64,000 nt of DNA from Desulfobacterales bacterium (GCA_963674755.2 CAXXVS010000003.1:1248001-1312000), one strand, 5' to 3'; positions 1,724-29,140 are shown, counted from the stretch's first letter. Made by a program: numbers and translations. Notes: generated by a model not told the origin, from the sequence alone.

Positions 1724-4700
1724 TTATTCGATGATCACGGTCGTTTCTGCTCCTGTCGCTGTTGCGGGGACATTGGCCGGAAACTCCGTAGGCATGAGGC
1801 GGCGGAACATGATGTCGCTGCCCTCCTCGCCCTCGTCCAGCCAGACGCCGTAGAAACGCTCGCCATTGGGCGTCATGCGGATCTGAACCTCCCCTTGCTC
1901 CTGGTCGCCCTTGGCCAGACGGTACCAGCCGCTGACGGTTTCGTCGGCATGATTGCCGTCGCTGTCCGGATTCACGACCCAGGTGTCCTCCACCAGGGTG
2001 TTGCCCCGATCCAGGGAGAAGCTCAGGAAAAGGTCCTCCGGAGCCTTCTCCACGTCGGGCAGGTTGGTGGAAGTGCCATAGGCCAGATAGAACACGTCCG
2101 GGTCCTGCTTGTCTTCGGCGATTCCTGTCCAAACACCGTTTACCTTGATCGTGCCGGGTACGGCCACGATCCGCGGCTCGATGACGCTGACCTTGTTGTT
2201 CTTGATCAGGGACACGTTGCGCGCGGGCTCGTAGACGCCGCCGCCTTGATACACGGTGTCGACCGTGTAGTGCTTGGTCGGCTCGGTGACATCGTTGCCC
2301 TCCGCGTCCAACTCCGCCCCGGAAACCCCTTCGGGATCGAAGAAGTAGTCGATGTGGGTGACATCGCCGTCATAATCTGGATCGGTGGTCCAGGTAGCAC
2401 CACCGTCGAAGGAACGCCGGATGTAGAAGTCATACTTGTCGTGGGCTTTGCGTGAGGCCGCCCAGTTGGGGCAGTAGGAGTAGCCCATGATGACGAAGTC
2501 GCCGCGAATCGCACCGCGATGGGCGCGCGCGTCTTCGTAGGGGTTTACGCCCGACTTCCAGGTCAGGCATTCTTCCGGCTGGATCCAGTCGCAGACTTTG
2601 ACGCCGTCACCCTTGGCGCTCTCGGAACGATCGGGATTGATCCAGGTCGTTCCGGGCATCACTGTGCTGACGTTCTGGGCGCCAGGTAGGAAGTTTGCAG
2701 GTGACCAAGGATTGCCCTTTTTGATGGTGCCGTCTTCATTTTTCACCACGCACCGGCGCATCATGATGTCGCTCGGCCGACCGGCACCTTCCTCGCCCTC
2801 TTTATAGAGGACGATCAGCACGGTGCCCGAGTTGTCCGGCTGTTTGAACGAGCCGTCCGTCTTGGTGCCACCGAAGGCGGACGCCTTGGACTGCAGGATG
2901 AACCGGGGACGGCGGGCGTTCTCGTAGGCCAGGATCGGATCACCTTTCCAATCGAGGATCTGTTGGCCGGCCAGGGGGTTGGGGATCGGTTCATAGCCGG
3001 TGATATTGCCTTCCGCATCGTAAATCGGATCTGACCCGAGATACTCCGGCTCCTGAGCATAGACGGGATTGCCGTATTCATCTGTCTCGGGCAGGTTGAG
3101 GATGGTCCCGGCGCTGACCAGGTCCGGCTGGGTGAAGTCGAAGCTGTGGTAGATGGCGTTTTTGCCGTTGTCCGGGACGGATTCATATGGGTCGTAGCCG
3201 CTGCCGTCCTGGGGCTGTTCTCCGGTTCCTGTTGTTTCCGAAGGCCCGGAACCCAAGCCTTTGGTCTCCTCATAGGCCATGATGGCCCAGGCGCTCTTGG
3301 TGCCGTCCTTCTTGGTGTAGGTCTGCAGGAAGAGGTTCGGACGCGTAGCCGAGGTGTTGCCATCCAGCAGCCGGCCGTCGGTGGCCACCGCCACGGTGCG
3401 CTCCGCGCCCTGGTAGTTGGTCTTGGTATAGAGGCCGATTCCGTCGGGTGAGATGCCATTCTCGTAGGACCAGAGATCCTGCTGCAACCACGGAAAGTTA
3501 TCCATGGTTACCTCGGTGATATAGCGGTGGGAGCCGTCTTTGGTATCGTCCGGATCGGGTTGGATGTAGGGATACGGGTCGTAGGGATAGTAAGCCTCGA
3601 TGATCTCGCCGCCTTCCTGGGTGCCGTCCTTCCAAATGCCACCCATGGCTTCGCATTCGGCGCATTTAACGGCTTCGTCCAGGCCGTAGGACACCGCGAT
3701 TACCCGGTCCCGGGGCACCACGTGATTGTAATGGCAACTCACACAGTCGCTGTTGGTAAATCCTCCCAGGTATTCGCCAGCCCCGTCATTGACCACCACC
3801 AGCGGTACCGGCGCCGCTTGGGTGGGGTTCTCACCATGGGGGTCGGTATCATAAGGCACATGGCAGTTGGTGCAATTCATGGTGGACGAGTGGTCACTCG
3901 GTACGGCCCGCAACACGGCGTAGTCAGCGCTCAGGGCATCGGGGTCGTCCGGTGTCACGATGGTGCCCCCGCCCTCGAATTTGACGCAGCGGGTCAGATT
4001 CGCGGTTTCGTAGGTAATGTCGCCCGCGCTGACCGCCGCGATGGGGTTGCCGTCGGCATCCAGCAACTCGGCGTTGTTCGTGTTGACGGCGTCGTTGTCC
4101 GAAATCCGTACCGGCAGCGACATGGGTACCAGAGCCTTGGGCCGGTTGGTCCACGCGATTTCATTGCCCTCATCGTCATATTGCACGGGATGCTCGGGAT
4201 CACCACCGGCCACGAAGTTTTCGTCGAGCTGCGCGTGATCGGCCCAGGTGATATAGCTGTACCAGATGTCGGTCTTGTGGTTGGCTGTGGCGCCACCCCA
4301 GCCAGGGCCGGGACCCTTGGCTTCACCCGGACGCAGCCCCTTGGGGTCTTCCTGCCAGGTGATGGCGAATCCGGCCCCGTCCGCGGCGCCCATGAATACC
4401 TGGTTGGCATCGCGCCGGCCGGAGGTCAGGCGTTCGGGCTTAAACCACACGATGTCGCCGACCTCCTTGTCGGCCCACCAGCCGCCCCTGTCGATTTCGG
4501 CCTGGGTGACGATGACGCCGCGGCAGGTCCAGACCGCACTGTAGGGCACCTCACCCTCTTCGGGGTAGCCCTGTTCGGTATAGTCCACTGAACGCTGAGG
4601 ACCCGAGACGCCCCAGAAATCGTCCGCTACATAAGGATCGTCGTAAGGATAGTCAGGGCCACATTTTTCATTTTCACCAGACCCTGCGCAGGTTTCGCAT

Positions 4701-6367
4701 TCATCGGGAACGCCATCGCCATCCTTATCCGGACAGGCCCGGATCGAATAGCGCGGCTTGCCGCCTTTGGCGAACTTGCTGGTCCAGGCGATCAGGATTT
4801 TATTGCCCTTGACCTGGAAGACCGGTTTCTTGCAGTAGCCATAGTAAGGCTCGCCATTGGCCAGGGTGAACGAACTGCGGTCGGCCATGCGCGAGATGTT
4901 CTTGCGTTTCCAGGTGTGGCCGTCGTCCCGGGACACAGCCGCCCAGACGTCGTGGGCGCCGGTTTCGGGGTCCGCATCGCAGAAGGTGGCGATGATCGGT
5001 TTGGCTTCGGTGGCCGTTCGGATCAAATTTCCATCTTCATCATAGTAAGGGATCGCGGGGGTCCCGGTCTCATCTGTATAATCCACTGGATCGCCGTTGG
5101 CCTTGAGAGCCGGGAACCAGACGCCCATGATGTTGAGCTTGGCCTTAGCGCTGGCCAGCTCTGGCGTGCGTGAGACGCGCTTGCGGAACATGGACGAGCT
5201 CGTGGATTTGCCCAAGTGGGCCTGGGCGTCTTCAGCTGAGACGGCCACCAGGCCAGTTTCGCTCATGGCACGGGCTTCGGTGATGGTCGCCTGGATGATG
5301 TCTTCCACCATTTCATCATCGCTGAAATTGATACTTTCCAGCCCAATGCCTGCCATGGCAGCGGTAAAGGCAGCGGCCACCGTATCGGTAATCAGGATGC
5401 CTTTTTGCGGGGTCGCATCCGCATCCAGGCTTTGGAGCAGGCGGGCCATGTTGATGACCCGCGGGTCGTCGAGGTCGCTGTTGGCGAACATGTCCAGCGG
5501 GGAGATTTTGTGGTCCACCAGGGTGCTGCCGATGGGGATGCCGCCGATGGAGAGCTCCACGGTCTCGCCCGGGAAATAGTCGAAAGCCCCGGATTCGTCA
5601 GTCAGCCCGTTGTGGGTCGGGGTCTGGAAGGTCATACCTTCCACCGGCGAGTCGATGAAGTGGGCCCGCCGCGGGTGGGCCATCTCGTAGGTGGCGAAGC
5701 CCCAATGGCTGAGGATTTTCTGTTTGAGGAAGCCGTTGACGTGGTTGTGGCGTTCGCGGTTGGCGTTGCCTTTGACAACGATGTGACGGACTTTGCCGAG
5801 ACCCGATACCAGGGCTTCGCTTTCTGGTCCCGTCGCCTCGAATTCCGGATCGACCATCCAGACATCGCGTTGGGAAAGAATTTTCCCCCTGATGCGGTCC
5901 ACAAAAACAAAAACCCCATGGACGCACAGGTTTTGCAGCCGCAGCGCCTCATAGGGCTGCCCCCAACGAAAATCCATGTCCTCTTCCAGATCGAGGACCA
6001 AGGCATACTGGCCGGCGGGCTCCTCGTATTGCACCCGGTAGGGGAAGACGTCTAGGTCGGGCGTACCGTTCGGTTTGAGGGGTACCGGATCGTTGCCCAC
6101 GTAGATGTCGAGCTTCTTGATTTTCCATTCGCCGCTGGCGTCCTGGCAGGTCAGATCTTCGGGCGTTACCCGGATTTGCAGCTTGACGCGGGTGTTCCAG
6201 ATCGCGACGCTACCGGTGGCGGGGTAGGTCAGCCAACCATCGTCGGTTAACTCGCATCGGTAGAGGTTGTTCTGCATGAGGCCGCCGGGACCTTGGTAAG
6301 CCCAACCCAAGGTCGGCAGGAGCGCGAGTAGGAGCCCTGTAATCAAACAACGATGGTGAAATTTCAT
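1724..6367 (-). CDS. Large secreted Asp-box protein, choice-of-anchor-O-like paralog 1, with two CXXCH heme c motifs
   Basis: Signal peptide MKFHHRCLITGLLLALLPTLGWA after purine-rich RBS. Asp-boxes SRDDGHTWK and RSFDGGATWT. Family block WQEDPKGLRPGEAKGPGPGWGGA..HKTDIWYSYI. CTNCH (3860-3874) and CVSCH (3731-3745). N-terminal FIDSPVEG module. Family name recalled, not searched. Confidence 0.75.
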   Translation of the reverse strand: MKFHHRCLITGLLLALLPTLGWAYQGPGGLMQNNLYRCELTDDGWLTYPATGSVAIWNTRVKLQIRVTPEDLTCQDASGEWKIKKLDIYVGNDPVPLKPNGTPDLDVFPYRVQYEEPAGQYALVLDLEEDMDFRWGQPYEALRLQNLCVHGVFVFVDRIRGKILSQRDVWMVDPEFEATGPESEALVSGLGKVRHIVVKGNANRERHNHVNGFLKQKILSHWGFATYEMAHPRRAHFIDSPVEGMTFQTPTHNGLTDESGAFDYFPGETVELSIGGIPIGSTLVDHKISPLDMFANSDLDDPRVINMARLLQSLDADATPQKGILITDTVAAAFTAAMAGIGLESINFSDDEMVEDIIQATITEARAMSETGLVAVSAEDAQAHLGKSTSSSMFRKRVSRTPELASAKAKLNIMGVWFPALKANGDPVDYTDETGTPAIPYYDEDGNLIRTATEAKPIIATFCDADPETGAHDVWAAVSRDDGHTWKRKNISRMADRSSFTLANGEPYYGYCKKPVFQVKGNKILIAWTSKFAKGGKPRYSIRACPDKDGDGVPDECETCAGSGENEKCGPDYPYDDPYVADDFWGVSGPQRSVDYTEQGYPEEGEVPYSAVWTCRGVIVTQAEIDRGGWWADKEVGDIVWFKPERLTSGRRDANQVFMGAADGAGFAITWQEDPKGLRPGEAKGPGPGWGGATANHKTDIWYSYITWADHAQLDENFVAGGDPEHPVQYDDEGNEIAWTNRPKALVPMSLPVRISDNDAVNTNNAELLDADGNPIAAVSAGDITYETANLTRCVKFEGGGTIVTPDDPDALSADYAVLRAVPSDHSSTMNCTNCHVPYDTDPHGENPTQAAPVPLVVVNDGAGEYLGGFTNSDCVSCHYNHVVPRDRVIAVSYGLDEAVKCAECEAMGGIWKDGTQEGGEIIEAYYPYDPYPYIQPDPDDTKDGSHRYITEVTMDNFPWLQQDLWSYENGISPDGIGLYTKTNYQGAERTVAVATDGRLLDGNTSATRPNLFLQTYTKKDGTKSAWAIMAYEETKGLGSGPSETTGTGEQPQDGSGYDPYESVPDNGKNAIYHSFDFTQPDLVSAGTILNLPETDEYGNPVYAQEPEYLGSDPIYDAEGNITGYEPIPNPLAGQQILDWKGDPILAYENARRPRFILQSKASAFGGTKTDGSFKQPDNSGTVLIVLYKEGEEGAGRPSDIMMRRCVVKNEDGTIKKGNPWSPANFLPGAQNVSTVMPGTTWINPDRSESAKGDGVKVCDWIQPEECLTWKSGVNPYEDARAHRGAIRGDFVIMGYSYCPNWAASRKAHDKYDFYIRRSFDGGATWTTDPDYDGDVTHIDYFFDPEGVSGAELDAEGNDVTEPTKHYTVDTVYQGGGVYEPARNVSLIKNNKVSVIEPRIVAVPGTIKVNGVWTGIAEDKQDPDVFYLAYGTSTNLPDVEKAPEDLFLSFSLDRGNTLVEDTWVVNPDSDGNHADETVSGWYRLAKGDQEQGEVQIRMTPNGERFYGVWLDEGEEGSDIMFRRLMPTEFPANVPATATGAETTVIIE

Positions 6368-6509
6368 CCTGCCCCCTTCCTTTTGGTTTGTTTCCGTTCG
6401 CATGCGAAATGAGATGGGTTGACCTTTCCTTGCGGGCGATCAACAGAAGCGCCCATGTTGTCAAAATCGGCTAAGAACTTTTGTGGGATGAATCGTCAGG
6501 GGTAGGACT

Positions 6510-6525
6510 AGCAATTTGAGTGCCA
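6510..6525 (-). promoter_or_regulatory. sigma54 -24/-12 promoter of paralog 1
   Basis: Minus strand TGGCAC-TCAAA-TTGCT, a perfect match to TGGCAC-N5-TTGCW. Confidence 0.85.
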
Positions 6526-6586
6526 TATAATAATAGGAATTATAACCATTTATTATCAGACAGATACGGATTAAGTAAATTTTAAA

Positions 6587-6646
6587 ATGAAATATATTTC
6601 ATAATATTGTTGCGAAAGTTTCGTTTGATTATGAAATATATTCCAC
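6587..6646. promoter_or_regulatory. Tandem palindromic regulator-binding sites
   Basis: Perfect palindrome ATGAAATATATTTCAT (6587-6602) and near copy ATGAAATATATTCCAC (6631-6646) in an AT-rich region upstream of the sigma54 promoter. Confidence 0.6.
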
Positions 6647-6778
6647 AATCAAAAGATTTGATTAATTGCGGCAGGGAGGTAATGGCGGATCTTGATAGTT
6701 GTCTTATCATAGGGTATCGGGCAAATTTGAGGCTGCCAATGACCATTCACGTAGACTGAGAAGCGAGGGCACCTGACC

Positions 6779-7588
6779 ATGCCTTTGGATCATACGAACG
6801 ACAGGGCGCGGATCATATACTTCTCCCACGGCGGCGGGCCGCTGCCGATTCTTGGAGATGCGAGCCACCGGGCCATGATCGCCTTCATGCAGGTCCTGCC
6901 GGACCAGCTCGAAAGGCCGGAGGCGGTCGTGGTGATCAGCGCCCACTGGGAAGTGCGTGTCGCTACGGTATTGGGGCATCGCGCGCCCGGCATGTTCTAC
7001 GACTACTACGGGTTTCCGCCGGAAGCCTATCAAATCAACTACCCGGCTCCGGGAAACCCCGGCCTGGCGGAGAAAATTGCGGCGTTGCTGAGCAACAGCG
7101 GCATCTCCGCCCAAATCGATTTCGAGCGGGGCTTCGACCACGGCTTGTTTATTCCCATGGCAATGATGTACCCCCAGGCGGAGATTCCCATGCTCCAGCT
7201 ATCCCTTATCCGGGGGCTGAACCCGGCTAATCATATCGCCCTGGGCCGTGCTTTGCGTAACTTGCGAAGCGAGAACATCCTGGTGGTCGGTTCCGGATTT
7301 TCATTTCACAATATGCGGGCCTTCTCCTGGCAGGGGACGAAAGCTCCCGACCCCCGCAACGATGCCTTTCAAGATTGGCTTGTCGATGTTTGCACCGGCC
7401 CGCATTCCCAAGAGGAGCGCGAAGCCCTGTTGATCGAATGGGAACAAGCCCCCCATGCCCGCTACTGCCATCCGCGGGAAGAGCATCTTCTCCCCCTGCA
7501 TGTTTGCCTGGGGCTGGCCGACCGGCCCGCGGAAGTGATTTTCGATGATAACATTCTTGGCAAGCGGGCGGTGGCTTTCAAGTGGTAG
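6779..7588 (+). CDS. DODA/YgiD-type extradiol ring-cleavage dioxygenase (LigB family)
   Basis: SHGGGP, VISAHWE, YDYYGFP, RGFDHG, GSGFSFHN and HPREEHLLPL motifs. Confidence 0.85.
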   Translation: MPLDHTNDRARIIYFSHGGGPLPILGDASHRAMIAFMQVLPDQLERPEAVVVISAHWEVRVATVLGHRAPGMFYDYYGFPPEAYQINYPAPGNPGLAEKIAALLSNSGISAQIDFERGFDHGLFIPMAMMYPQAEIPMLQLSLIRGLNPANHIALGRALRNLRSENILVVGSGFSFHNMRAFSWQGTKAPDPRNDAFQDWLVDVCTGPHSQEEREALLIEWEQAPHARYCHPREEHLLPLHVCLGLADRPAEVIFDDNILGKRAVAFKW

Positions 7589-8025
7589 CTATCACCCATA
7601 TCCAAATGCTGACATCGCCGGCTAACGGGAAGAAAGTTAAAACGGCAATGGGCTTTTTGCAGGCGCCTGAAGCCTAGTGCAAGGCGTTAACGGCGACGCC
7701 TGAACAGCGGGCGGCCGTGCAGGGAACGGGCGTAATTTCTCAACGGCCAAAAAGCAGGCAGGTGTTTCCGTAAGCCGGCCTGGCCGAACCTCCTGGATAA
7801 TCTGCGGGTCGGATTGGTCTTGATAACCCTGCCTTCGACCAGCCCGGACAATACAAGACAGCCTGAAAAAGAAAACGAGAGATCTGGCGCCGACACGTCA
7901 GGTCGGCTTTGAGGTGATCATGGCGCAAGCGCTGTCGCTTCAGTGGGAGGTGCTGCCGGGCAGTTTCGGCATTTACCGCTGCTTCGAATCAATTCTGCCG
8001 CATCCGACGGGTGCCGCTTGCCTGG

Positions 8026-8379
8026 TCAATACTTCCCGTAACGCAGGCGGGTGCCATAGTCGAGGGATAGACGGATTTCCTGGGGCGACAATTCCGGCGG
8101 GAAATACACACCGGATATTTTCGCTCCGTGAATGCTGGCCCCCTCGAGACGGCAGGTGCTCAAGTCCAACCCCCGCAAGTCCGTCTGCCGGAAATAGCAG
8201 CCCGAAAAGTCAATGCCTTGCAGATTGAACTGCCGCAGGTCCTGGCTGCGGAAATCGAGATTGCGGAAGTCGCAGCAGTTTTCCTCGGTACATCGTGCAT
8301 TGAAGGCGTCGATGTCTTCATCCAGGATGAGCTGATAGAGCTTATTGCGGGTATCCCTGTGTGGCGGTTGATTTTCCAT
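8026..8379 (-). CDS. Pentapeptide repeat protein
   Basis: Repeats LDFRS QDLRQ FNLQG IDFSG CYFRQ TDLRG LDLST CRLEG ASIHG AKISG. Confidence 0.85.
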   Translation of the reverse strand: MENQPPHRDTRNKLYQLILDEDIDAFNARCTEENCCDFRNLDFRSQDLRQFNLQGIDFSGCYFRQTDLRGLDLSTCRLEGASIHGAKISGVYFPPELSPQEIRLSLDYGTRLRYGKY

Positions 8380-8585
8380 GTAACGCTCCCTTTTTCGGCA
8401 ATTGCCGTTTTGGTTCGCCGACGACCCTGCACGACTATGGCGCGGCCGTCCTATTTATTAACGGTAAAATGCCGGAAAACTTGAATTGGATAGGCCTCTT
8501 CCCGATGATCGGCCTCACGGTCCGTCGAGCATACGACGCGGTTGACCCGATGCCGAAATCGATCTTCTGTGGCCTCTCAAACGGC

Positions 8586-8599
8586 TGTAGCATGACACA
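8586..8599. promoter_or_regulatory. Putative enhancer (TGTGTC-N2-GACACA family)
   Basis: TGTAGC-AT-GACACA, 144 bp upstream of the sigma54 site at 8743. Confidence 0.5.
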
Positions 8600-8742
8600 A
8601 TTGCGGGAGACCCATAATTGTGTCGCCGCGGCCGGACACCTTTCTGCGAAAACTTCCCCGATTGCTTTCTGCTTCAATACGAATCAGCGTCATTCTTAGG
8701 AACGCAACGATCTGTCCCTCTTTCAATGATGAACGACTTCGG

Positions 8743-8758
8743 TGGCACAGGATTTGTA
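8743..8758 (+). promoter_or_regulatory. sigma54 promoter of the cytochrome operon
   Basis: TGGCAC-AGGAT-TTGTA (variant -12). Confidence 0.6.
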
Positions 8759-8929
8759 AAACCACCATGCCACAGGATCGGCAGACAAGGTCTCCCAAGT
8801 GCGGCAGGATAGTGCAAGACCCCCGGGTCCGTGACGCCCCGCAGCGTTTCCCCCTTTTGCTTTCAAACCGGAGCATTTTCGATAACGCCCAGACGGCGAA
8901 CGATCTTCATGAAAGGAGAACACACCAAA

Positions 8930-9820
8930 ATGGCCAAAAAAATTCATCGACGGGAATTCCTGGCCGGCGGCCTCGGGGCCGGCGCCATGGCGCTGGGGCT
9001 GGGAATCAGACCGGCCCCCTTGCAGGCGAAGGAGTCCGAACCGGAGTCCATTCCGTTTCCGCTGCCCCCACCCGTTGTCCCGCTGGACGTCGCTGCCGTG
9101 CGCCAGACGGCCTATGATCGCTATTTTCAAGGGGGCTGCATGTACGGCGCTGCGGCGGCGCTGGTGGAAGGGCTGCGGGAGGCCTGCCGACCCGCCGCCG
9201 ACGGGAGCGACTACACGGATTGGGATCTCATCCCCACCGGCATGTTCAAATACGGCAGCGGGGGCGTGGCCGGCTGGGGGACGATCTGCGGCATCTTAAA
9301 CGGCACGGCGGCGGTATTGGCCATGGCGGACTATGGTGGCCTTATCGATCAGGTGATGGGATGGTACACGATGCAATGCTTTCCTCTGGCGGACAGCGAC
9401 GATCTAGAGACGTCCGATCGCTCCTACCGGGCCCTGGCGGATAGCGAGGTGCCGGCTCACACGGTATCCGGTTCGCCCTTGTGCCATATCTCCATTGGCA
9501 AATTTTGTGCAGCCGCCGGCATTACGCTCAAGGACGCTTCGGCGGAAGGGATGAATTATAAACAGGACCGCTGTAGCAAAGTCTGTGCGGAGACAGCGGC
9601 TCTGGCGGCCTCGCTGATCAATGCCCAGTTGGCCGAAAGCGCGGAAACCCTTTACACCACACCGGAGTCCTATGCGTCCTGCCTGACCTGCCACGGGACC
9701 ATAAAAGATCAGGTGGGCAAGATGAACTGTCATGGATGCCATTCCACCTCCGAGGTTACGCTTGTCGGGAGCGGGCATGAGCGCAATGTGACAGCACCCA
9801 AGAATCGCAAAAAGCGTTAA
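8930..9820 (+). CDS. Tat-exported C-GCAxxG-C-C / split-Soret cytochrome c family protein with C-terminal di-heme
   Basis: AGGAG RBS; twin-arginine signal IHRREFLAGG; GGCMYG, GWGTICG, LCHIS, DRCSKVC; C-terminal CLTCH and CHGCH. Confidence 0.8.
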   Translation: MAKKIHRREFLAGGLGAGAMALGLGIRPAPLQAKESEPESIPFPLPPPVVPLDVAAVRQTAYDRYFQGGCMYGAAAALVEGLREACRPAADGSDYTDWDLIPTGMFKYGSGGVAGWGTICGILNGTAAVLAMADYGGLIDQVMGWYTMQCFPLADSDDLETSDRSYRALADSEVPAHTVSGSPLCHISIGKFCAAAGITLKDASAEGMNYKQDRCSKVCAETAALAASLINAQLAESAETLYTTPESYASCLTCHGTIKDQVGKMNCHGCHSTSEVTLVGSGHERNVTAPKNRKKR

Positions 9821-9905
9821 TCCTGCATCTGGCGCTCCGGCGCCCCAAACCACTGTTTTCGCTAAACCAATCACCCGCCCAAACGGGCGGGCGGCGAAGA
9901 CCGCT

Positions 9906-12323
9906 ATGACACCAATAGCCGTATCAGATTATCACCAGAGACCGTCTGTGGTCGTCGGCACGGGGTTGATCCTGTTTACGATCCTGTTGGTCTGGTGCTT
10001 GCCGGCCATAGCCAAGATTCGCACCTGCGGACCGATTTACCTGCGGGATGCCGACGGGCGGGTCATCAACCCATTGACCGGGGAGAATGCGGATCAACCC
10101 TTCAGCACACGGCAGACCTGCGGCGCCTGCCATGATTACGAGCGCATTACGTCCGGCTACCATTTTCAACAGGGTTGGGATCGCATCCGGGATGATTTCT
10201 CCAAGGAAAAGCCCTGGGTGCTTTCCGACGGCATGATGGGCAAGCAGTGACCGCCCTCTTTTCGCCAGTTGGCGAAAAAGACAAACCAAGTCCCGGAAGC
10301 GATCGACCTCACCGTGTTCGAGTGGGTGACGGCCGGCAGCAATCCCCTCAAAGGCAAACCCGGCTGCGGCGGCTGCCACCCCGGCGGCGGCGGGATGGAA
10401 CGCGATCGCGACGGGCAACGCTACGACCGGCGGCTGGCAGAGCAGCCCGAACTGGCCCGAACATTGGACGGCGACTACCATCGCAGCCAATGGGACCGCA
10501 GCGGGGTGATCGAGGCGGATTGTTTTATCTGCCATCTCCCAGGGTATTACTTCAAGGAACGTATCCGTCAACTCGATCGGTTGAATTTCAAGTGGGCCAT
10601 CGTGGCCGCCACGGGCATCGGGCGGGTGACCGGTGCCGTAAAGGCCGGCGAAACGCCGGAGATTGTCTACAATCGTCGCTACTTCGACGATGACGGCCGC
10701 ATCGTCCTGGATTTGCTCTCGCCCCCGTCATCGGAGAATTGTGTGGCCTGCCATGGCATCGCCGATCTCATTAAACGCGGTTTCTCCTGGAACGAGCGCA
10801 TCAATCACGATGTCCATAATCTTCACGGTCTGGAGTGTGTCCAGTGCCACGCCGGCAACCCGGAGCATAATTTCGCCAAGGGCGATGAAAACATGTCAAC
10901 GGTGCGTGACGATCTCGACAACACCATGTTGACCTGCCGCCAATGCCACATGCAGGGGTTTATGGGGGCGCCCCGGCCGGAGCATACCGGCATCCGCCCC
11001 AACCATCTGGAAAAACTGGGCTGTGAAGTGTGCCACATCCCGGCGGTCTACCGCACGGCCGCCCGGGGGTTGTGCGTGTCCACGGGCAAAGTGGCCAATT
11101 ACCCCATGGCCGGCGCCCAGCACATCGGCGAACGGGTGCGCTGGCAGCCGGATTACCGGCGGGATGCTGACGAGGTACTGAAGCCGGTCAACGCCTTCCA
11201 GGCCAATCTCTATACCAACCGCGACGAAGACGGCCTTTATCATCCGTTGTTCGCCAGGGAGATCGCCGCTGCAGCCAAGATCATGGGCCCGCCGAAAGCC
11301 GCGCCGCAGTCCGATCAGCCCTTGATTCGGGAACCGGAGGACATCCGAGGCATGCTGTCGGCTCTGAAGACGACGCTTACCACGAATCGGCGCTTCGGCC
11401 GTGTTCGTCCGCGCTATCATTTACAGGGACGGATCTACGCCTTGGATGAAGCAGGCCGTCTCGTCGATACCCCGGACACCACCTGGGTGACGGAGGAGAA
11501 GGGGTTCAATATCAGCCACAATGTCGCCCCGACCCACGCGGCCCTGGGTGCCCAGGGGTGCGGCGACTGCCATTTGCGCAGCAGCCATGTCTTCGAGAGC
11601 TGGATTGCCCAGGAGCTGCAATCTCTGGAAACGCACGCCCCTCTGAAAATGAGCGGATTGAGCTGGCGTGGGCGTCCCCTGGCCGACTACCTCAAGGAGC
11701 TGCATGCGCACAATTGGCTGAAATACTACCTCGTTCCCGGATTGTTCACGCTGGTGTTTATCATCGTGGTCCATCGCCTTGTCGGCGGCGGCCTGCGGTC
11801 CGCATCGCTCCTGGGAACATGGACTGTCAACCTGCAGGTGGCCAGAGCTTTGCTGGTCACCTTTCAGGCGCTGGCGATCTCTTTTCTGGCGTTTTCAGGC
11901 CTGGTGTTCTTCTACAACAACATGTCGCTGTTGTTTATCTTCTTCAGCGACATGGAAACGGCCAGCCGTTTGCATGTCGCCATCGGGATCGCCTTCCTGA
12001 TATCAATAGGTCTGGTGAACGTGATTGACCGCCTTTGCGATTTTGCCCCCGGACGCCACCAATCCGGCCGCTACCTTTCCGGGCCCGTCCACCGGAAGTA
12101 TGGACGGGCGGCGGTTCCGGTTTGGCGCTCCTGGACGGACCACCTGGATACGCGCCTCATGTTCACCCTGGCGGTTTCCGGCGGCATCATGCTGTTTCGC
12201 CGTCATTTGGGATTGGAAATCAAATATCTCGTTTCCGCCTGTCACGCCGCCGCTGCGGTGGCTTTCGTGGCGGCCGTTCTGGCCAAGGTCTATTATCGAT
12301 TCACCCGACGGAACACGGGCTGA
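9906..12323 (+). CDS. Octaheme c-type cytochrome with C-terminal cytochrome-b-like membrane domain; probable selenoprotein (in-frame TGA 10248-10250)
   Basis: ORFs 9906..10250 and 10269..12323 are in the same frame (GMMGKQ-TGA-PPSFRQLAKK). 8 CXXCH: CGACH, CGGCH, CFICH, CVACH, CVQCH, CRQCH, CEVCH, CGDCH. Hairpin right after TGA. Several C-terminal TM helices, two carrying His. Confidence 0.75.
10257..10281 (+). promoter_or_regulatory. Candidate bacterial SECIS element
   Basis: Stem TTTTCGCC/GGCGAAAA with loop AGTT; loop starts 16 nt after the UGA and has G in position 2. Confidence 0.65.
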
Positions 12324-13012
12324 ACACCTTCTCTCTCCTGTAGTCCCCTTGGGGACGCCATATGCCTCACTCCTTTTTTCCATACCCCCCCCCTCCATAT
12401 ATACTGAACATCATTCAGGTAGTAAAAAGTTGCCCAATTATGTCGCCTGAGGAATCATTTGACCCACAAATGCGGCATGGACGATTTTCCCCCTGACACA
12501 TGATCGCCCCTTTCCGGGATCAGCTTATAATCACGACAAAAACGTCCGTTAGAAACACCGCTGCCGATATGGTGCGATGGCCCGTTGGAAGCGATCGGCG
12601 GAAAAATCGCAACGCCGGGTGGCGGGCCGGTTACCGCTAACGCCATCCCAAGATAGGGGGAGTCAACCACTTGCATGCACCATATATAGCGCATTCAGGG
12701 CTATTCCCGGTATCCGATATGAAATTATTTTCTTATTATTAAACGGTCTTTGAGAGCCGCGTATGTCATAATAGATTGATAATATTCAAAAAAAAATGAA
12801 TTTGTCGGGATTGCATGAAATTTGCTTTCACCACAGCTACGATCACTCTCAGACAGACTTCGATCCATTATCGTTCTTGATATCGAGGGTGTTGCCAACG
12901 GCATAGGCAAACCCTGCAAATAGTGTTGATCCATTTAATTCGGTTTAGAGCTTGGCGATGTTCTCCTTGTAGCGCGCCGCTTCCCTTGCGCGCAGACGAC
13001 AGGACGATCCTC

Positions 13013-15107
13013 ATGACCGGTTTGGGCAACCGTTTTCACGAACGATGGTGGGCGAATAACATCTTCTATGTCGGCCTGGCCCTCGGCATTCTCTACTGGG
13101 GGCTTGAATCCGCAATGCACGTCTATATTTTCGATGAAGGCACCCTGGCACAGCAGGTGATCAGCCCGGATGCCCACGAAATCTGGATGCGCCTGATGGT
13201 GGAAGGCCTTCTGGTGGGTTTCAGTTTCTACTGCCAAACCATCATCAACGCCCGGGAGCGGGTGGAAAGCGCCCTGATTCGCCGTGAAAAAGAGGCCAAC
13301 GATATCCTTGAAAACAATCCTGCCGCCATCATGCTCATCGATACAGAGACCCGGCGTATCAGTTGGGTGAACTCCAATGCCGTGCAATTGACCGGCAGTT
13401 CCAAGGAACAGCTCGTCGGTCGCGTCTGCCACGACCATCTCTGCCCTTCAAATCGCGGCAATTGCCCGGTGCTGGACTGGGGGCAGGTCCTGGACCGCTC
13501 CGAGCGGAAATTGATCGCGGCCGAAGGTACCGAGGTCCCCATTTTGAAAAGCGTGACCCGGGTCAACTACAAGGATCGTGAGCATTTGCTGGAGGCGTTT
13601 TTCGATATTACCAAGCAGAAGGAAATGCAGCGGGCCATCAAATCCGCCCATGCCGAACTCGCACAGATTTTTCAGACCGCCTCGGTGGGCATGCGCCTGA
13701 TCGACCGCGATTTCAATATTCTCAAGGTCAACGAAACCTTCGCGCGCCTGTCCGATTTCCCGGCGAATGAAGCCGTGGGCCGCAAATGCTTCGATGTCTT
13801 CTCGGGCGCCAAATGCCATTCGGCGGATTGCCCCCTGATCCAGATCCGCGACGGCCATGATCCTGCTGAATACGAAGTCACCAAGAAACGGACCGACGGT
13901 ACCCAGATTCCCTGCATTCTGCGATCGACCCCCTTCATCGGCCCGGATGGCGAAACCATCGGTATCGTAGAATCCTTTCAGGATATTACCGCCCTGAAGG
14001 CCATCCAGGAGGAGTTGCGGTCCGAGCGGGACAAGCTCCACCGCATCCTGTTCCAGCAATTGGAAGGCGTCGGCATCGTCAATGCCGAATGGCATATCGA
14101 ATACCGCAACGAGACGCTGGATACCATGCTGACCAACGTCGCCGGGCAAAAATGCTACGAGGTGTTCCGCCAGCGCGCAACGCCCTGCGCCCATTGTTAT
14201 ATGAAGGCCTCCATCGCCACGGGCACCATCCAGCGGTGCGAGTTCGATGCGGCCGACGGCAAAAGCTACGAACACACTTACACGCCCTTCGTGGACAGCG
14301 ACTTCCGGAAGAAAGCGGTCATCTCGGTGCGGGATATCACCGAGCGCAAGGCTTCGACCCTGGCGGCGGTACGCTCCGACCGGCTGGCCGCTTTGGGTGA
14401 ATTGGCAGCCGGGGTGGCCCATGAGATCAACAATCCGGTCAACGGGATCATCAACTACGCCCAGATTTTCGTCAACCGGTACCAGACGGACGGAATGATC
14501 AACGATATCAGCGGCCGCATCGTGAAAGAGGGCGACCGGATCGCCCGGATCGTCGAAAGTCTGCTGGCCTTTGCCCGCCAGGACGAAGATGAACGCGCTA
14601 TGACGGCGATCGAGGAGGTCCTGGCGGATTCGCTGACCTTGACGGCGGCCCAGCTGCGCAAAGACGGCATTGCGATCATGCTGGATATGCCGGCCGGTCT
14701 GCCGCCGGTGGAGGTTCACACCCAGAAGATTCAACAGGTCTTTGTGAACCTGATCAGCAATGCCCGTTACGCCCTCAATAAGAAGACGGACAAGGAGACG
14801 AACGGCGGCAAGCAGCTTCGCATCTCCGCCGAAACCGTTGATCAGGAGGGGGGGGGCCTGGCTGCGGATCATCTTCCATGACACCGGCATCGGTATTCCG
14901 GCAGAGGTCATCGACAAAATCATGAATCCCTTTTTTTCCACCAAACCCAAAGGGATGGGGACCGGTCTGGGGCTCAGCATCAGCCATGGCATCATCAACG
15001 ACCATCGCGGAACCCTGACGATTGAAAGCCGCGAAGGTGACTATACGCGTGTTACGATCGATCTGCCGGCAACCGTGCCGGCCGAGGAGGGCAGGTTAGC
15101 GTCATGA
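13013..15107 (+). CDS. Membrane multi-PAS sensor histidine kinase, frameshifted at G9 tract 14848-14856
   Basis: Two TM helices, PAS repeats, H-box GVAHEINNP and N-box QVFVNLISNA in one frame. HDTGIGI, PFFSTK and GTGLGLSIS are in the +1 frame ending at 15107, overlapping the next ATG (ATGA). Confidence 0.85.
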
Positions 15108-16804
15108 ACGAGAAAATCCTGGTGGTGGATGACGAAGAGAGTATCCGTTATACGTTCCAGATGTTTCTGGAGGATGAAGGGTACCAGGTAACGACCGCGG
15201 ACAATTACGAGGTAGCCCTCGAGCACATCCAGGCCAGCGAATTCGATCTGGTGTTCATCGATATTATTTTGGAGGGGCGCTCCGGCATCGATTTGCTCCG
15301 CGCCCTGCGCGAACACCGCCCGGGGGTCCCGGTGATCATGATCACCGGGGCGCCGAGCGTCGAAACGGCTTCCGAAGCCCTACGGCTGGGGGCGCTGGAC
15401 TACATCGTCAAGCCGGTGCGCCAGGACAACCTGATGCGGGCCACCACCATGGCCGTTCGCCACAAACAGATGCTGGACGATAGGGAAAGCTGCCGGCAGA
15501 ACATGGAGGCCATTTTTCGCAGCGTCAAGGACGGCATCGTCACCGTGACGGCGGACATGACCGTGATGGAGGTCAATGCCGCGGCGGCGGTCATCTGCGG
15601 TATCCCCAAGGGCGATATTTCACAAAACCCGTTGGCCGCCATGCTGGGCGATTGCAGCGGCGAGTGCCTGAGGGCATTGCATGAGACGCTTAAAAGCCAG
15701 AAGGCCACCCATTTGCACCATATCGAATGCCGCGCCGGACGCCGGCCGGGACAGGTGGTCAGCGTCAGCGTTTCCCCTTTGTTGAGTCGACGCAACAAGT
15801 TTGCCGGGGGCGTTATGGTCCTGCGGGACGAAACACGTCTGCTCAACCTGGAAAGGAACTTGAAGGAACGCCAATTCTACGACCGCCTGATCGGCAATGC
15901 GCCCCGCATGCAGCGGGTCAAAGCGCTGATCAAAGACCTGGCCGGTGTGCCCACCACGGTTTTGTTGACCGGCGAGAGCGGCACCGGTAAGGAGCTGGTG
16001 GTGGACTCCCTGCATTTCCAGGGGGACCGGAGCGACAAGGCCCTGGTCAAAGTCAACTGCTCCGCACTTTCGGACAACCTTCTGGAGAGCGAACTCTTCG
16101 GCCACGTCAAGGGCGCCTTCACGGGGGCGGTCAAGGATCATGTGGGCCGCTTCCAGAAGGCTGATGGCGGGACGATTTTCCTGGACGAGATCGGCGACAT
16201 CTCCCCCAAGATGCAGCTGCGGCTGTTGCGGGCGATCGAGAACATGGAATTCGAGCGGGTCGGCGGCAACACCTCCATCAAGGTGGACGTGCGCATCGTG
16301 GCGGCGACGAACCAGGATCTGCGCCTCAGGGTGGCCCGGGGGCAGTTCCGGGAGGATTTGTTTTACCGGTTGCGCGTGATGGAAATCAATCTTCCGCCAC
16401 TGAGAGAGCGCCGGGAAGACATTCCCCTGCTGGTGAGCCATTTTATCCAGAAATTCAACCGCCGGCTCGGCAAACAGATCAAGACCGTGACGGAAGAAGC
16501 CCTGCGGTCCCTGACCTGTCATGACTGGCCCGGTAATGTGCGCGAGCTGGAAAACATGATCGAGCGGGCCTTTGTCCTCTGTCACCAGTCCACCATCACG
16601 ATGGACCACCTGCCCGAAGAACTGCTGTCCGGATCCCGCTCGCCGATGGGCGGTGCCTATCCGCTCACCGAAGACGAGGAAGTTTCCTCCATTCTGTCCG
16701 CCCTGGAGAAGACGGCCGGCAACAAGAGCCGGGCCGCCCGTCTTCTGGGGTTCAGCCGCAAGACGATCTATCGCAAGATCGAAAAGTATAATTTACACGT
16801 TTGA
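15104..16804 (+). CDS. sigma54-dependent response regulator (REC-PAS-AAA+-HTH, NtrC family)
   Basis: ILVVDDE receiver, GESGTGKE Walker A, GAFTGA, FLDEIG, WPGNVREL, Fis-type HTH NKSRAARLLG. Confidence 0.92.
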   Translation: MNEKILVVDDEESIRYTFQMFLEDEGYQVTTADNYEVALEHIQASEFDLVFIDIILEGRSGIDLLRALREHRPGVPVIMITGAPSVETASEALRLGALDYIVKPVRQDNLMRATTMAVRHKQMLDDRESCRQNMEAIFRSVKDGIVTVTADMTVMEVNAAAAVICGIPKGDISQNPLAAMLGDCSGECLRALHETLKSQKATHLHHIECRAGRRPGQVVSVSVSPLLSRRNKFAGGVMVLRDETRLLNLERNLKERQFYDRLIGNAPRMQRVKALIKDLAGVPTTVLLTGESGTGKELVVDSLHFQGDRSDKALVKVNCSALSDNLLESELFGHVKGAFTGAVKDHVGRFQKADGGTIFLDEIGDISPKMQLRLLRAIENMEFERVGGNTSIKVDVRIVAATNQDLRLRVARGQFREDLFYRLRVMEINLPPLRERREDIPLLVSHFIQKFNRRLGKQIKTVTEEALRSLTCHDWPGNVRELENMIERAFVLCHQSTITMDHLPEELLSGSRSPMGGAYPLTEDEEVSSILSALEKTAGNKSRAARLLGFSRKTIYRKIEKYNLHV

Positions 16805-16939
16805 AGTTGGGATCCCCTTGTCCTTCCCCGCGCCTGCCGGGCGAATCGCGCATGATCGCAGCTGGCGACGGCCTCCAGCGCTTTTCCTAGCAATGAAAGC
16901 CCTCCGCTGATACACCTTCCCCAGCCCAAGCTGCAAACA

Positions 16940-16953
16940 TGTGTCACGACACA
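16940..16953. promoter_or_regulatory. Putative enhancer, perfect TGTGTC-N2-GACACA
   Basis: TGTGTC-AC-GACACA, 147 bp upstream of the sigma54 site at 17100; degenerate copies nearby (TGATACAC at 16908 and 16961). Confidence 0.6.
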
Positions 16954-17099
16954 ATGGCCCTGATACACAAATGTGACATGGCGCATGTCTTGGGCGGAAC
17001 AATTTCCGGATGCGACCCGAATTCCTTTCTTCTAAAGCCATAACGCTCTGTAAATACATCGAAAAATAAGTTTCAAGAATAGGCCGTCGACGCCCGGTT

Positions 17100-17115
17100 T
17101 GGCATGGAACTTGGA
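17100..17115 (+). promoter_or_regulatory. sigma54 promoter of paralog 2
   Basis: TGGCAT-GGAAC-TTGGA (variant -12). Confidence 0.6.
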
Positions 17116-17259
17116 GTAGACACCGCGCAGGCGGCAACAACGGCCGGCATGAACGGAAGCGCGGGTTTTAAAACCCCGGTAGAGGTGAAATTTTCCATAA
17201 GAAGACCAATTGAGTTCGCTGAAGCATACAAGCGATCCAGAAGAGAAAGGAGACGAGCA

Positions 17260-20200
17260 ATGCGTCGAAAACAATCGTTTTGGGTGGCCTTGGTGGCTAT
17301 TTGCCTTCTGGGGACGATTTCGCCGGCGATGGCCGACTGGGGCGATGTCACCAACAAATTCAGCATATCGACCTCGGCACCTGTCGCCAATACGAACGTC
17401 GATGGCACGTTCACCACAATCGACGTGACCGTCACATTTTCGGCGGATCTCGATGACGCCATCATGGGGGATCTGCGCCTGCTGGTCGTACCGCTGGATG
17501 GAACGCCCGCCCCTCGCAATCCGGACGGCGAGATGGGGTTGGATGGGTCGAATCCAATAATTTATTACATACTCCCCACAGGCGAAGACGGCGAATTGGT
17601 CCCTAACGAGTCTGTGACCATTACAATGGAAATGGAAGGGAACGTGTCGTCACCGGATTTCAACTTCAGTATCGAAGTCAACGACGAATCCATCGATACC
17701 ACCATCTTTCGCAAAAAAATCTCAAAGACACCGGAGTATTACAGCGGTGAAGGGGGCATCGAGGTGATGCCCCTCTATGTCGAGGCCCGGAGCACCCAGG
17801 GGTATGCCTACACAAGGGATACCCTTAGCGGAGACCTGATTCCCTGTTGCCCGGATGAATGCCCGAATGGCGAGGAGGGGGCCGACGACGTCTGCGGCAT
17901 CTGCGACCCATCCTGCGCCGCATCGGGATACGCCACCGTCAAGCCCCTCGTCGTCACCTATGTCCAGGAGGAGGAGGAGGCCCCTTTCAACAGTGTACCG
18001 AGTTACGATCCCAATGAAGACGGGGTGGCGGATGAAGGTGATCGCTATGCCCACGACATTTATGCGGCGGTATCCTACGATGAAGGATTGACCTGGAAGC
18101 GGCGCAACATTTCGCGCACCTCACTGAAGTCCTCCTTCACCCTGCCCAATGGCGTGTCCTATCCGGGGGATTCCGAGGACGCCGACCTCACTGTCGTAGG
18201 GCCATACGCCTTCGTCACCTGGGTCGACAAATACTGCCGCAGCGGGGATCCCTGGGATATGGAAGCTCAGGACATCGATGATATCTACCAGGTGACCGGT
18301 TCCCAGAAGTCGGTGGACTATCTGGATGTCACCGGCGATGAGGACCCGCGGCCCGACCTGGGGGTGCGGCCCTTTTCCTGCCTGTGGGGCGCCCGGGGCG
18401 TGTTAGACATGGAACCGGAAACCGCCGACGGTGAGGCCAACCCCAATTACGGCACCATCGTCTGGTACAAGGCCGAGCAGCTTTCCACCGGCCGGCGGGA
18501 TGCCAAACGCAACTTCAACGCCGGCATCGAACCTGTGCACGATCCTAATTTGAATGAAAACAACCTGGTCGAGGGTACCGGTGGCTTCGCCGTCTCCTGG
18601 CAGGAGGATCCGAAAGGGCTCAAGACCGGCAAGGGGCGCGGTCCCGGGGCCGGCATGTCCGGCGCCTGCGTCAACCACAAGACCGATATCTGGTACAGCT
18701 ACATCGGCTGGAGCGACTTTGCCACCGTCGACGAGGATTTCGTCTCCAACAGCGACGGCGATGCCGTGCAGGATGGCGACGGGGAATCCATGTCCAATTA
18801 CTTCTGCACCGCCTGCCCCTATGTCTACGATCCGGAGCTCGGCGACGTGGAACATGACATCCTGGCGGGAACGTCCTTCGACAGCTTGCCCGAAGACTGG
18901 GTCTGCCCGCTGTGCGGCGCCGCCAAGGCGGATTTCGAAAAGGACGCCAAGCCCCATGCCCTGGTGCACTTCCATCCGCCGGTGCGGGTAACCGACAACG
19001 CGGTGTGTCGCGAGCGCAACCCCACCGAGATCATGGGGCACGTCCACACCGCCGACCATATCGCCGTCACCGACTGCGACTACTACTACGAGGGCGGCAC
19101 CACCAACCAGCCGCTGGCCTGGGACGATCTGCCCGACGATTGGGCCTGCCCCAAGTGCGGCGGAACGAAAGACACCTTCGAAGCTGAGGCTATCTTCATA
19201 AAATATCGCAACGAGGGTGCGCCCTACTGCGAGTGGTTCGCCAACAACCCACGGGTAGACGGCGACGGCAACGAGGTCTCGTCGACAGAGGATGCTTACG
19301 CGGTGGCCTACTACACCACTGATGAGGGCGAGCCGCTGGACGGTAACACCGGGGCCTCCCGGGCCAACCTCTCCCTGGTGAACTGGCAGGGTGAGACCCT
19401 GGCCCTGATGGCCTACGAGGAGACCAAGGGCGTCGGCGCCGGCAGCGACAAGGAGGCGGCCGCCATGGAGCAGGCAGCGCCCCTTCCGCTGGTGAAAATG
19501 GATGACGGCACCTGGGAGGCCGGCTTTACCAACAGCGACTGCCGAAGCTGCCATTATAAGAATGTGGTGCCCCGGGATCGCGTGATTCCGGTCAGCGACC
19601 AAACAATCTGTGAAGAGGTGAAGGGTGGGGTCTGGAAGGAGGAACTCGAAGCGTACTTCCCTTACACCGGCTATCCCTACATCACCGATCAGTCGGTGGA
19701 CGTCGGTCAGCTGGCCGCCGACGGAGTATCCTATGACACCAGCAACGCGGTCAAATGCGTCAAGTTTCAGGGCGGCTGGGGCATGTACCCCCGGGACTAC
19801 GCCCAGATCTACGAAGGCGACAATTACTACAACCTGCCCGACCACATGCCCGGGTGGCATCAGGAGGCGCTGGACTGCACCGGCTGCCACCTGCCATACA
19901 ACACCAAGGATTCGGACGGCGACACGATCAACGATCGTGCCGACATGTGTCCCGGCACGCCCGCCGGCGCCGATGATATCGATATGAATCCTGAAAGCGT
20001 CAACTACGGTTGTTCGGCATCCGAGAGTCCCGACGACCAGGACAACAACAAGGACGAGCCGGATCGCTTCCGGCACGGCAAGAACCTCTACTACCACCAC
20101 TTCGTCTTCAATGATCCGGACTTGGCGGCCATCGGCCACGGCGACCAGATCAACGGCTTCAGCCGGGACGTGCTCGGCCAGGATGATGAGGGCAACGACA

Positions 20201-24541: not shown

Positions 24542-24542
24542 T

Positions 24543-25769: not shown

Positions 25770-25784
25770 AGTTGGGAGCGTTTT

Positions 25785-26219: not shown

Positions 26220-26220
26220 G

Positions 26221-27206: not shown

Positions 27207-27268
27207 CCGCGGATGATCGGCAACGGCCTTGTCCCGGCGGAGAATCGAATAGGGGAAAGCGGACTGCC

Positions 27269-28971: not shown

Positions 28972-28986
28972 ACGCTCTCATCGGTG

Positions 28987-29000
28987 TGTGGCGTGATACA
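28987..29000. promoter_or_regulatory. Putative enhancer (TGTGTC-N2-GACACA family)
   Basis: TGTGGC-GT-GATACA, 125 bp upstream of the sigma54 site at 29125. Confidence 0.5.
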
Positions 29001-29124
29001 CTCCTGGTGACCCACAAGTGGGACTTTGTCCCTCCAAGGGTCACACTCCCCGGCCTAGGGGATGGAAACGGTTTGATTTTTTTGATAAAACATCCGCAGT
29101 TGCTGGGTCACAACGCGATGGATT

Positions 29125-29140
29125 TGGCACGGGTTTTGGA
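29125..29140 (+). promoter_or_regulatory. Internal sigma54 promoter for gspL-M-C-D
   Basis: TGGCAC-GGGTT-TTGGA in the gap between gspK and gspL. Confidence 0.65.

Follow-up and report, generated by a model that had tools for sequence, protein, structure and literature searches.

We describe a predicted di-haem cytochrome c module that occurs in circularly permuted forms, at more than one site, in a family of large and likely exported proteins. It was recognized in a 64,000-nucleotide stretch of the genome of a Desulfobacterales bacterium (GCA_963674755.2, CAXXVS010000003.1:1248001-1312000; hereafter the window), which encodes three paralogs of the choice-of-anchor O family (NCBIfam NF040591), P0001, P0002 and P0003 (Table 1). 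The module spans 150-165 residues, contains two CXXCH motifs and consists of two halves, A and B. In our reading, which we consider probable, a single di-haem c domain was moved between loops in the order B-A and then circularly permuted in place. It probably carries electrons while tethered to the predicted top face of its scaffold, which is likely an exported beta-propeller.

A first-pass annotation of the window had reported both halves in paralogs 1 and 2, in opposite order and at different loops, and neither half in paralog 3. Every motif that it listed was located, and the motif coordinates confirm the order A-B at site 1 (after PVRISDN) in paralog 1 and B-A at site 2 (after YEETKG) in paralog 2; P0003 has no CXXCH and no CXXC, and CXXCH is also absent from its 120 closest relatives listed. 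The concern that the two inserts might after all be collinear, or related only through their CXXCH motifs, is answered by their alignment, which consists of two non-collinear blocks with 48/86 identical positions in B (56%; E 6e-25) and 22/68 in A (32%; E 9e-13), a homology that extends well beyond the haem motifs. With CXXCH held fixed, none of 2000 shuffles reached the A-A score of 123 (shuffle maximum 61) or the B-B score of 214 (maximum 59), while A against B stayed at chance in all four pairings, with 120 to 1145 of 2000 shuffles reaching the score. Because A and B resemble each other no more than by chance, the swapped order is not a misread repeat, and circular permutation, in the sense of homologous segments in swapped order, is directly observed. 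The module sits in gaps of the NF040591 profile match. Its G+C content and third-position G+C (GC3) are the same as those of the host genes, and a foreign origin by composition was rejected on that ground. Pfam gives no splicing or nuclease domain that would point to an intein, homing endonuclease or transposon, terminal repeats not having been searched.

Both arrangements recur well beyond the window. The 15 and 58 relatives returned by region searches show two stable architectures. A profile built from 24 module sequences matched 19 of 1.84 billion representatives (16 with the module or part of it, 3 weak and at motif level), a genome scan with the scaffold alignment gave 447 family stretches (77 loci listed), and a metagenome scan with half B listed 18 loci. 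The distinct module sequences collected comprise 59 with A-B at site 1, 24 with B-A at site 2, 1 with B-A at site 1 and 1 free-standing B-A; P0196, a fragment that clusters with P0208 of type 2, is not a further architecture. Five single-half matches are cut or frameshifted records, and no intact single-half protein occurs among 328 sequences, in the final set or among the 19 matches from the 1.84 billion representatives. The halves travel together, and their co-occurrence is obligate.

The sequence with B-A at site 1, P0206 (locus L098), bears on the history of the module. Its type-1 scaffold, the type of paralog 1, is sister to two A-B carriers (support 100; 80% identity), and its module, placed at the site-1 insertion point, branches between all B-A modules at site 2 and all A-B modules (98/95 and 100/96; 100/96 and 100/99 in a second tree). 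The linker within its B-A module is its own. One 1,075-base contig from an independent sequencing run of another study (X3) spans both P0206 junctions with 0 differences, and run X4 covers the module in overlapping pieces; runs X1 and X2, as possible sources of L098, were left out of the independent support, and runs X6-X15 contain small parts of the stretch or nothing of it. A search of 401 genomes from the class to which G447 belongs, and of four further genomes, turned up no second copy of B-A at site 1. Order and site are thus separable, given a B-A copy that occupies site 1 and whose module lies between the two groups in the tree, and it is likely that relocation and permutation happened as separate steps. 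The first-pass annotation had envisaged two graftings of differently opened copies, for which a move followed by permutation is now the likelier substitute. Its idea of a mobile module is supported by the two sites, by presence and absence in close orthologs and by one free gene.

That free gene encodes a protein of 330 residues (P0193/P0207, named by NCBI as a Desulfoluna limicola protein), which matches genome G1029 at 100%. It is an intact open reading frame with a signal-peptide-like start, a Gly/Ser-rich linker, the module as B-A and the acidic, thrombospondin-type-3-like tail also found in P0002, and all key residues are kept. No scaffold match lies within 20 kb of it in this single-contig genome. 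The free copy nests among the type-2 modules (96/85) on a long branch and retains their linker AAAMEQ, and because of this linker and this nesting it was probably pruned from a type-2 gene. The key residues retained along the long branch suggest that it may be expressed and functional. It adjoins a likely selenocysteine octahaem gene 54% identical to the octahaem gene of the window. About 200 kb away, the same genome encodes a type-1-like scaffold with the site-1 loop cut to a few residues, which marks site 1 as a dispensable loop.

Phylogenetic analysis of the scaffold, with the module removed, places these forms in context. The FastTree tree holds 169 rows (63 A-B, 20 B-A, 5 with an unrelated insert and 81 empty) and omits some duplicates as well as most of the P0003-like rows and of the proteins shorter than 1000 amino acids. 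In it the type-2 proteins group together, and all 20 carry B-A. The A-B carriers are interleaved with empty proteins in such a way that well-supported branches force at least 6 changes, a pattern that recurs in an IQ-TREE analysis of 49 rows, and the type-1 outgroups are empty. B-A modules are more diverse than A-B modules, with a median identity of 47% versus 62%, and remain so at equal scaffold divergence (46% versus 61% in the 60-70% bin). Among close orthologs the site-1 loop is present or absent as a block. In sliding comparisons, which show block exchange, identity between P0060 and L078 is 80-97% but falls to 45-47% in the site-1 flanks; the DNA of the syntenic orthologs L035 and L078 aligns without a break except across the site-1 loop; and P0024 is a mosaic.

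The course of events that we favour, as the simplest, would start from B-A resident at site 2 of type-2 proteins. A B-A copy would then have entered the site-1 loop of a type-1 gene, giving a state like that of P0206, and a tandem duplication to B-A-B-A followed by deletion of the two outer halves would have produced A-B there, although no remnant of it is seen. Duplication followed by deletion is the textbook route to circular permutation. Filled and empty site-1 loops would later have been swapped between type-1 alleles through homologous recombination, and pruning of one type-2-derived copy would have left a small gene that encodes a signal-peptide-like start. Two schemes of a single step were rejected: duplication and deletion in one event, on the logic that a single event on the block A-B-X cannot yield X-B-A, and a circular-DNA intermediate, after the discovery of P0206.

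The module is, with high probability, a single domain. Residues C806, K808 and H838, both CXXCH motifs, and S889, P897, C917, W924 and Y941 (numbering of P0001) are present in 83/83 rows of both orders and in P0206, and because the haem residues are invariant the module is under purifying selection. Judged by profile envelopes, the A-to-B gap is 4-7 residues in 48/53 cases and the B-to-A gap at most 11 in 16/16; A-B and B-A both occupy the same site-1 insertion point, and the termini can be joined by short linkers. AlphaFold2 models without haem are moderately confident for the two orders (predicted local distance difference test, pLDDT, 69 with predicted template modelling score, pTM, 0.63; pLDDT 75 with pTM 0.69) and have similar secondary-structure elements. 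Since each half has one lone invariant cysteine, C806 of half A and C917 of half B may staple the halves by a disulfide or act as metal ligands. Comparison of the models with known folds gave no match at E <=0.001 in Foldseek or at Z >=2 in VIA-align for either order, the best PDB sequence matches are at motif level (E 0.008 or worse), and the ESM Atlas holds no usable module match. The models are haem-free, moderately confident and made up mostly of short strands and loops, so the absence of a fold match does not by itself establish a new fold.

Both CXXCH motifs likely bind haem c covalently. The invariant H838 may be the sixth ligand of one haem, and because it is the single spare invariant histidine, the other haem would have a non-histidine or open sixth position. 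The most likely role is that of a tethered electron carrier for an exported propeller, with predicted anion binding at an arginine-lined mouth. Tethering near this mouth is likelier than fixed docking because the two permutants attach through different ends of the domain.

Features of the scaffold suggest where the module may sit. Each paralog has 2-3 Asp-boxes of the SxDxGxTW type, BNR matches lie below cut-off in 28/35 members, and Asp-box spacing counted by eye gives eight blades of four-strand units, so counted that site 1 would lie between blade 3 strand 4 and blade 4 strand 1, and site 2 in loop 2-3 of blade 4. Sequence and profile searches of the PDB with the scaffold came back empty, and the ESM Atlas offers unnamed clusters and BNR-family neighbours at 0.82-0.83, which are weak leads. 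The link from strand 4 to strand 1 belongs to the top face of a propeller. Loop 2-3 is likewise placed on the variable and functional top face of Asp-box propellers, and loops 1-2 and 3-4 on the other face, in the part of PMC2716378 consulted. Sites 1 and 2 may then be neighbouring loops on one face.

These loops have received other redox motifs. An unrelated insert of the form CXXCH-x12-CXXCH occupies site 2 in five actinobacterial loci that form their own clade (L052, L054, L056, L057 and L068), mostly with an additional histidine a few residues past each motif. In type-2 proteins the site-1 loop has a rubredoxin-like pattern in 17/20 rows. Two rubredoxin-type sites are unusual in an exported protein, and in the second of paralog 2 HxH..C replaces the first CXXC. 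Across the 169 rows, two-CXXCH inserts are confined to the two loops wherever the anchors were located (118 + 34 + 10 motifs, with 14 unanchored and 4 single motifs elsewhere). Selection for haems on one face, which the first-pass annotation took to be implied, is suggested by the unrelated two-CXXCH insert at site 2 and the rubredoxin-like site at site 1. Against such selection, loop lengths vary in most members and only about three independent events are involved, rubredoxin 1 of paralog 2 lies on the presumed opposite face, and the permutants attach by different ends. Many relatives of P0003 (among them P0092, P0102, P0105, P0118, P0129, P0167 and P0169) have a cysteine-rich, repetitive insert of roughly 70-130 residues after the DIxxRRF strand, without CXXCH.

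The history and make-up of the module could be read differently. If A-B at site 1 were ancestral and had been permuted there to B-A, which then colonised site 2 of type-2 proteins, P0206 would lie between the groups just as well, since the module tree is unrooted, and A-B is the commoner (59 versus 24 sequences) and taxonomically wider form. We nevertheless regard this reverse path as unlikely, because B-A is deeper in diversity at equal scaffold divergence, every type-2 scaffold has it and type-1 outgroups are empty. An improbable account is that A and B are independent mono-haem mini-domains arranged like beads, their swap being domain shuffling. The halves each have their own CXXCH and diverge unequally across types (identity 28% in A and 51% in B, with 40% in the scaffold), and covariation gives no excess of cross-half pairs. 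Yet intact one-half proteins are missing from all sets searched, gain, loss, relocation and excision always concern both halves, a lone invariant cysteine stands in each, and the pTM of the whole module is 0.63-0.69 in both orders.

Alternatives to a tethered electron carrier concern its chemistry and its place. The CXXCH motifs might bind zinc or form disulfides, making the module a structural or adhesive decoration in a family rich in cysteine pairs and metal-binding accessory domains, and neither a Pfam cytochrome family nor a solved cytochrome fold matches the module. This we consider very improbable, as the histidines of both motifs are invariant (83/83), the starts are signal-peptide-like, and a cytochrome c maturation gene (PF01578) is found in 17/17 genomes with haem-motif members and also in the genome of the window (G000) while it is missing from 11/33 genomes with module-less members (present in 22/33), counts in which related genomes are not independent and some genomes are incomplete. 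The module might instead be a catalytic centre, with a Cys-, Lys- or Tyr-ligated haem or a nearby metal site (C806, H838, C917), acting on a small anion, for instance a sulfur compound, that conserved arginines hold at the propeller mouth. Only one non-motif histidine is invariant for two haems, and yet C806, K808, C917 and Y941 are invariant, as are scaffold arginines across types (R664, R1021, R1164, R1165, R1296 and R1411); the free copy adjoins a likely selenocysteine octahaem gene; and the consulted parts of two papers offer precedents in the Tyr-ligated haem of hydrazine synthase, which has a zinc-bound motif histidine (PMC12607021), and in the His/Cys haem of the polysulfide reductase MccSep (PMC13510729). 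Catalysis is possible but rather unlikely in our judgement, given that most members are module-less (0/120 P0003-like proteins listed have the module, and 81/169 tree rows are empty), that close orthologs differ in its presence and that it is attached in three different geometries. Because most members lack the module and close orthologs differ, the scaffold evidently works without it. Finally, the loops may be merely permissive, acidic and ready to accept any insert, the clustering then reflecting tolerance and local recombination. This is a serious possibility, though we lean away from it. Both loops are hypervariable in length and include low-complexity inserts without motifs, loop 1 is lost in L132, other loops take inserts (rubredoxin 1 and the cysteine-rich insert of the P0003 relatives), and top-face loops of Asp-box propellers are generally variable, according to the part of PMC2716378 consulted. 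But every located two-CXXCH insert in the 169 rows is in these two loops, one of these inserts, found in a separate clade, has no sequence relationship to the other, type-2 proteins place a rubredoxin-like site in loop 1, and the invariant haem residues point to purifying selection on the module.

Several results also weigh against our overall interpretation, that of one domain relocated, permuted and tethered to a propeller. P0206 and the free form are known from one sequence each. None of the trees is rooted, and half B on its own gives an unresolved tree (approximately unbiased test, p 0.35), so the direction of events is something that we infer. In the B-A model the C-terminal haem segment has a pLDDT below 50. 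Cross-half pairs make up 15 of the top 40 in mutual-information covariation against 21 expected; the best cross-half score exceeded 30 shuffles, but with 57 and 78 rows the signal is dominated by variable surface positions and relatedness, and covariation was not used as evidence. Simple disulfide counting is upset by C914, an extra cysteine that has no visible partner and occurs in about two thirds of A-B rows. Blade-to-blade profile matches are weak, though mostly in register (best E 3e-4, with one reversed control at 7e-3). The likely selenocysteine octahaem gene is present in 3/17 module-bearing genomes searched, and a multihaem neighbour at 1/15 loci from module-bearing genomes; a conserved multihaem or octahaem redox partner is not supported by these counts. 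Because it is present in 3/17 module-bearing genomes, the octahaem cytochrome is a local rather than a general partner.

Quinohaemoprotein alcohol dehydrogenases and cytochrome cd1 combine a beta-propeller with haem c, their haem domains being terminal. The proteins described here resemble these and hydrazine synthase (PMC12607021, in the part consulted) in having a predicted exported propeller and a covalent-haem domain able to relay electrons. They differ in that no Pfam, NCBIfam or PDB profile matches and in that the haem domain is an optional loop insert without a solved-fold match; Pfam and NCBIfam also give no PQQ (pyrroloquinoline quinone) repeat or family match that would indicate a PQQ dehydrogenase. 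Known di-haem cytochromes c include c4, TsdA, DHC and cytochrome c peroxidase. With these and PufC the module shares two CXXCH motifs in about 150 residues and spare Cys, Lys and His as possible axial ligands, but it has no profile or fold match among them. Likeness to Asp-box (BNR) propellers and sialidases lies in the Asp-boxes, the sub-threshold BNR matches and long variable top-face loops (PMC2716378, in part); no PDB sequence or profile match was found, and no glycosidase activity is implied. Multihaem cytochromes gain haem-binding modules as whole peptides and lose them by pruning, as described in the consulted parts of Soares et al. (PMC9250108) and of bioRxiv 10.1101/2025.05.29.656830. 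Whole haem modules are gained and pruned here as well, but the di-haem module lies inside a non-cytochrome scaffold and is relocated and permuted. In the available text of PMC9250108 the phrase 'circular permutation' occurs in the reference list only and 'propeller' nowhere, and PMC11492766 contains 0 occurrences of propeller, choice-of-anchor or permut. The literature searched, which covered few subscription papers, holds no description of the choice-of-anchor O family, of the module or of its permutation.

We suggest, tentatively, that an undescribed di-haem c fold occurs here in four states (B-A in one loop, B-A in the adjacent loop, A-B in that same adjacent loop and a free exported form), and that an unrelated two-haem peptide and a rubredoxin-like site reached the same loops independently. 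The choice-of-anchor O proteins would in that case form a large family of redox propellers at the cell surface, so far overlooked, in which the electron carrier is exchanged as a cassette. Circular permutation and the grafting of haem modules are each known, and intermediates are rarely caught; the order of events is testable here because a surviving intermediate separates relocation from permutation and the module also exists alone. The free protein and the two permutants are small, expressible objects with a possibly new di-haem fold and an unusual ligand set (one spare His, two spare Cys, a Lys and a Tyr), and the minimal L132 protein is a good target for a structure of the bare scaffold. 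That redox motifs came repeatedly to the same two loops hints at the function of the family and suggests a redox role outside the cytoplasm in sediment anaerobes.

Table 1. Features of the module, its host proteins and their surroundings (positions in the window unless a locus is given; aa, amino acids; nt, nucleotides)
Feature	Position	Strand	Remarks
Paralog 1 (type 1), P0001, 1559 aa	1724..6403	-	NF040591 534 bits; module A-B in site-1 loop; likely start ATG at 6367; N-terminus signal-peptide-like
Half A, paralog 1, aa 789-856	3836..4039	-	C806, K808 (CVK), H838, CXXCH 844-848 (nt 3860-3874)
Half B, paralog 1, aa 861-949	3557..3823	-	CXXCH 887-891 (nt 3731-3745), VPRDR, C917, W924, Y941
P0001 motif starts (nt)	CVKFEGG 3988, CTNCH 3874, PVPLVVV 3811, CVSCH 3745, YPYDPYPYI 3589	-	
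P0001 module flanks	PVRISDN 4114, DGNTSATRPNL 3364	-	
Empty site-2 loop, paralog 1, aa 1046-1080	3164..3268	-	YEETKG to GKNAIYH
Paralog 2 (type 2), P0002, 1532 aa	17104..21702	+	NF040591 419 bits; module B-A in site-2 loop; likely start ATG at 17260
Half B, paralog 2, aa 789-862	19468..19689	+	CXXCH nt 19540-19554
Half A, paralog 2, aa 868-937	19705..19914	+	CXXCH nt 19876-19890
P0002 motif starts (nt)	PLPLVKM 19480, CRSCH 19540, CVKFQGG 19756, CTGCH 19876	+	
P0002 module flanks	MAYEETKG 19408, GKNLYYHHF 20077	+	Before and after the module, respectively
Acidic DxDxD..C..C tail 3' of half A, paralog 2	19909..20028	+	Thrombospondin-type-3-like; Pfam TSP_3 E 0.011, below cut-off
Rubredoxin domain 1, paralog 2, aa 563-612	18790..18939	+	NF045768 101 bits, PF00301; loop predicted on opposite face
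Rubredoxin-like site 2, paralog 2 (HxH..C..CPxC)	19033..19179	+	Fills site-1 loop; PF00301 E 3.8e-6, 27.3 bits vs cut-off 23
Paralog 3, P0003, 1149 aa	35530..38979	-	NF040591 693 bits; module-less; likely start ATG at 38796
Site-1 loop, P0003	37471-37656	-	
Site-2 loop, P0003	37264-37344	-	
Minimal choice-of-anchor O protein, 993-codon frame	L132:5826-8804	+	Site-1 loop almost wholly absent
Exact sigma-54 -24/-12 consensus	6511..6525	-	5' of paralog 1
Split-Soret cytochrome c-like gene, Tat-type	8831-9820	+	Below equivalog cut-off; one-mismatch sigma-54 site 8743-8757
Selenocysteine octahaem cytochrome candidate	9906-12323	+	In-frame TGA 10248-10250 (GKQ*PPS), then hairpin; read-through gives 8 CXXCH and membrane part
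Sensor histidine kinase, two overlapping frames	12923-15107	+	G run ~14848-14857; G010 ortholog is one 704-aa frame
Type II secretion cluster, between paralogs 2 and 3	23006-34252	+	GspE, GspF, GspD pass cut-offs; pseudopilin-like genes between
REP-associated tyrosine transposase	34421-35428	+	Between gspD and paralog 3
VKOR-DsbA fusion	39536-40822	-	Upstream of paralog 3
Penicillin-amidase-family gene	40864-43632	-	Upstream of paralog 3

The three paralogs pass the curated whole-protein cut-off of NF040591 (125 bits), as do P0206 (562 bits), P0199 and the L054 protein; the signal-peptide-like starts were judged by eye. The family numbers at least 1,231 proteins and is patchy, with the cut-off passed in 2/41 close genomes and 2/401 genomes of the phylum, that of the window included. 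Among named relatives the nearest belong to Desulfosarcina and further sulfate reducers. One further genome, G010, shares the three paralogs and their arrangement with the window and has a fourth in addition. Elsewhere, three A-B type-1 paralogs stand in tandem on one 21-kb metagenome contig (L114, L100 and L105), and in a draft genome of Desulfosarcina cetonica (L022:7004-16308) a type-2 gene, split over three frames possibly by sequencing errors, lies directly 5' of a type-1 gene on the same strand.

The genes that the paralogs flank in the window encode a split-Soret-like cytochrome, an octahaem cytochrome that includes a membrane part, a two-component system of the sigma-54 type and a cluster for type II secretion. 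The octahaem gene likely encodes a selenocysteine protein. Its TGA and the context of this codon are kept in G010, an in-frame stop occurs at the same place in G1029, and the genome of the window has two tRNA-Sec calls. It is weakly related to TIGR04314 and has 8 CXXCH motifs against the five given for the MccSep family in the part of PMC13510729 consulted. The secretion genes have similar sizes in G010, and the large paralogs are candidate type II secretion substrates, whose many disulfides the VKOR-DsbA fusion could serve. A near-exact copy of the sigma-54 site before paralog 1 also lies upstream of its G010 ortholog; across the window, matches with at most one mismatch number 8 where 5.7 are expected, which is not significant, and a family-wide conserved sigma-54 promoter was rejected, strict matches occurring in 2/74 upstream regions. 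The split of the kinase frame may reflect either a sequencing slip or phase variation.

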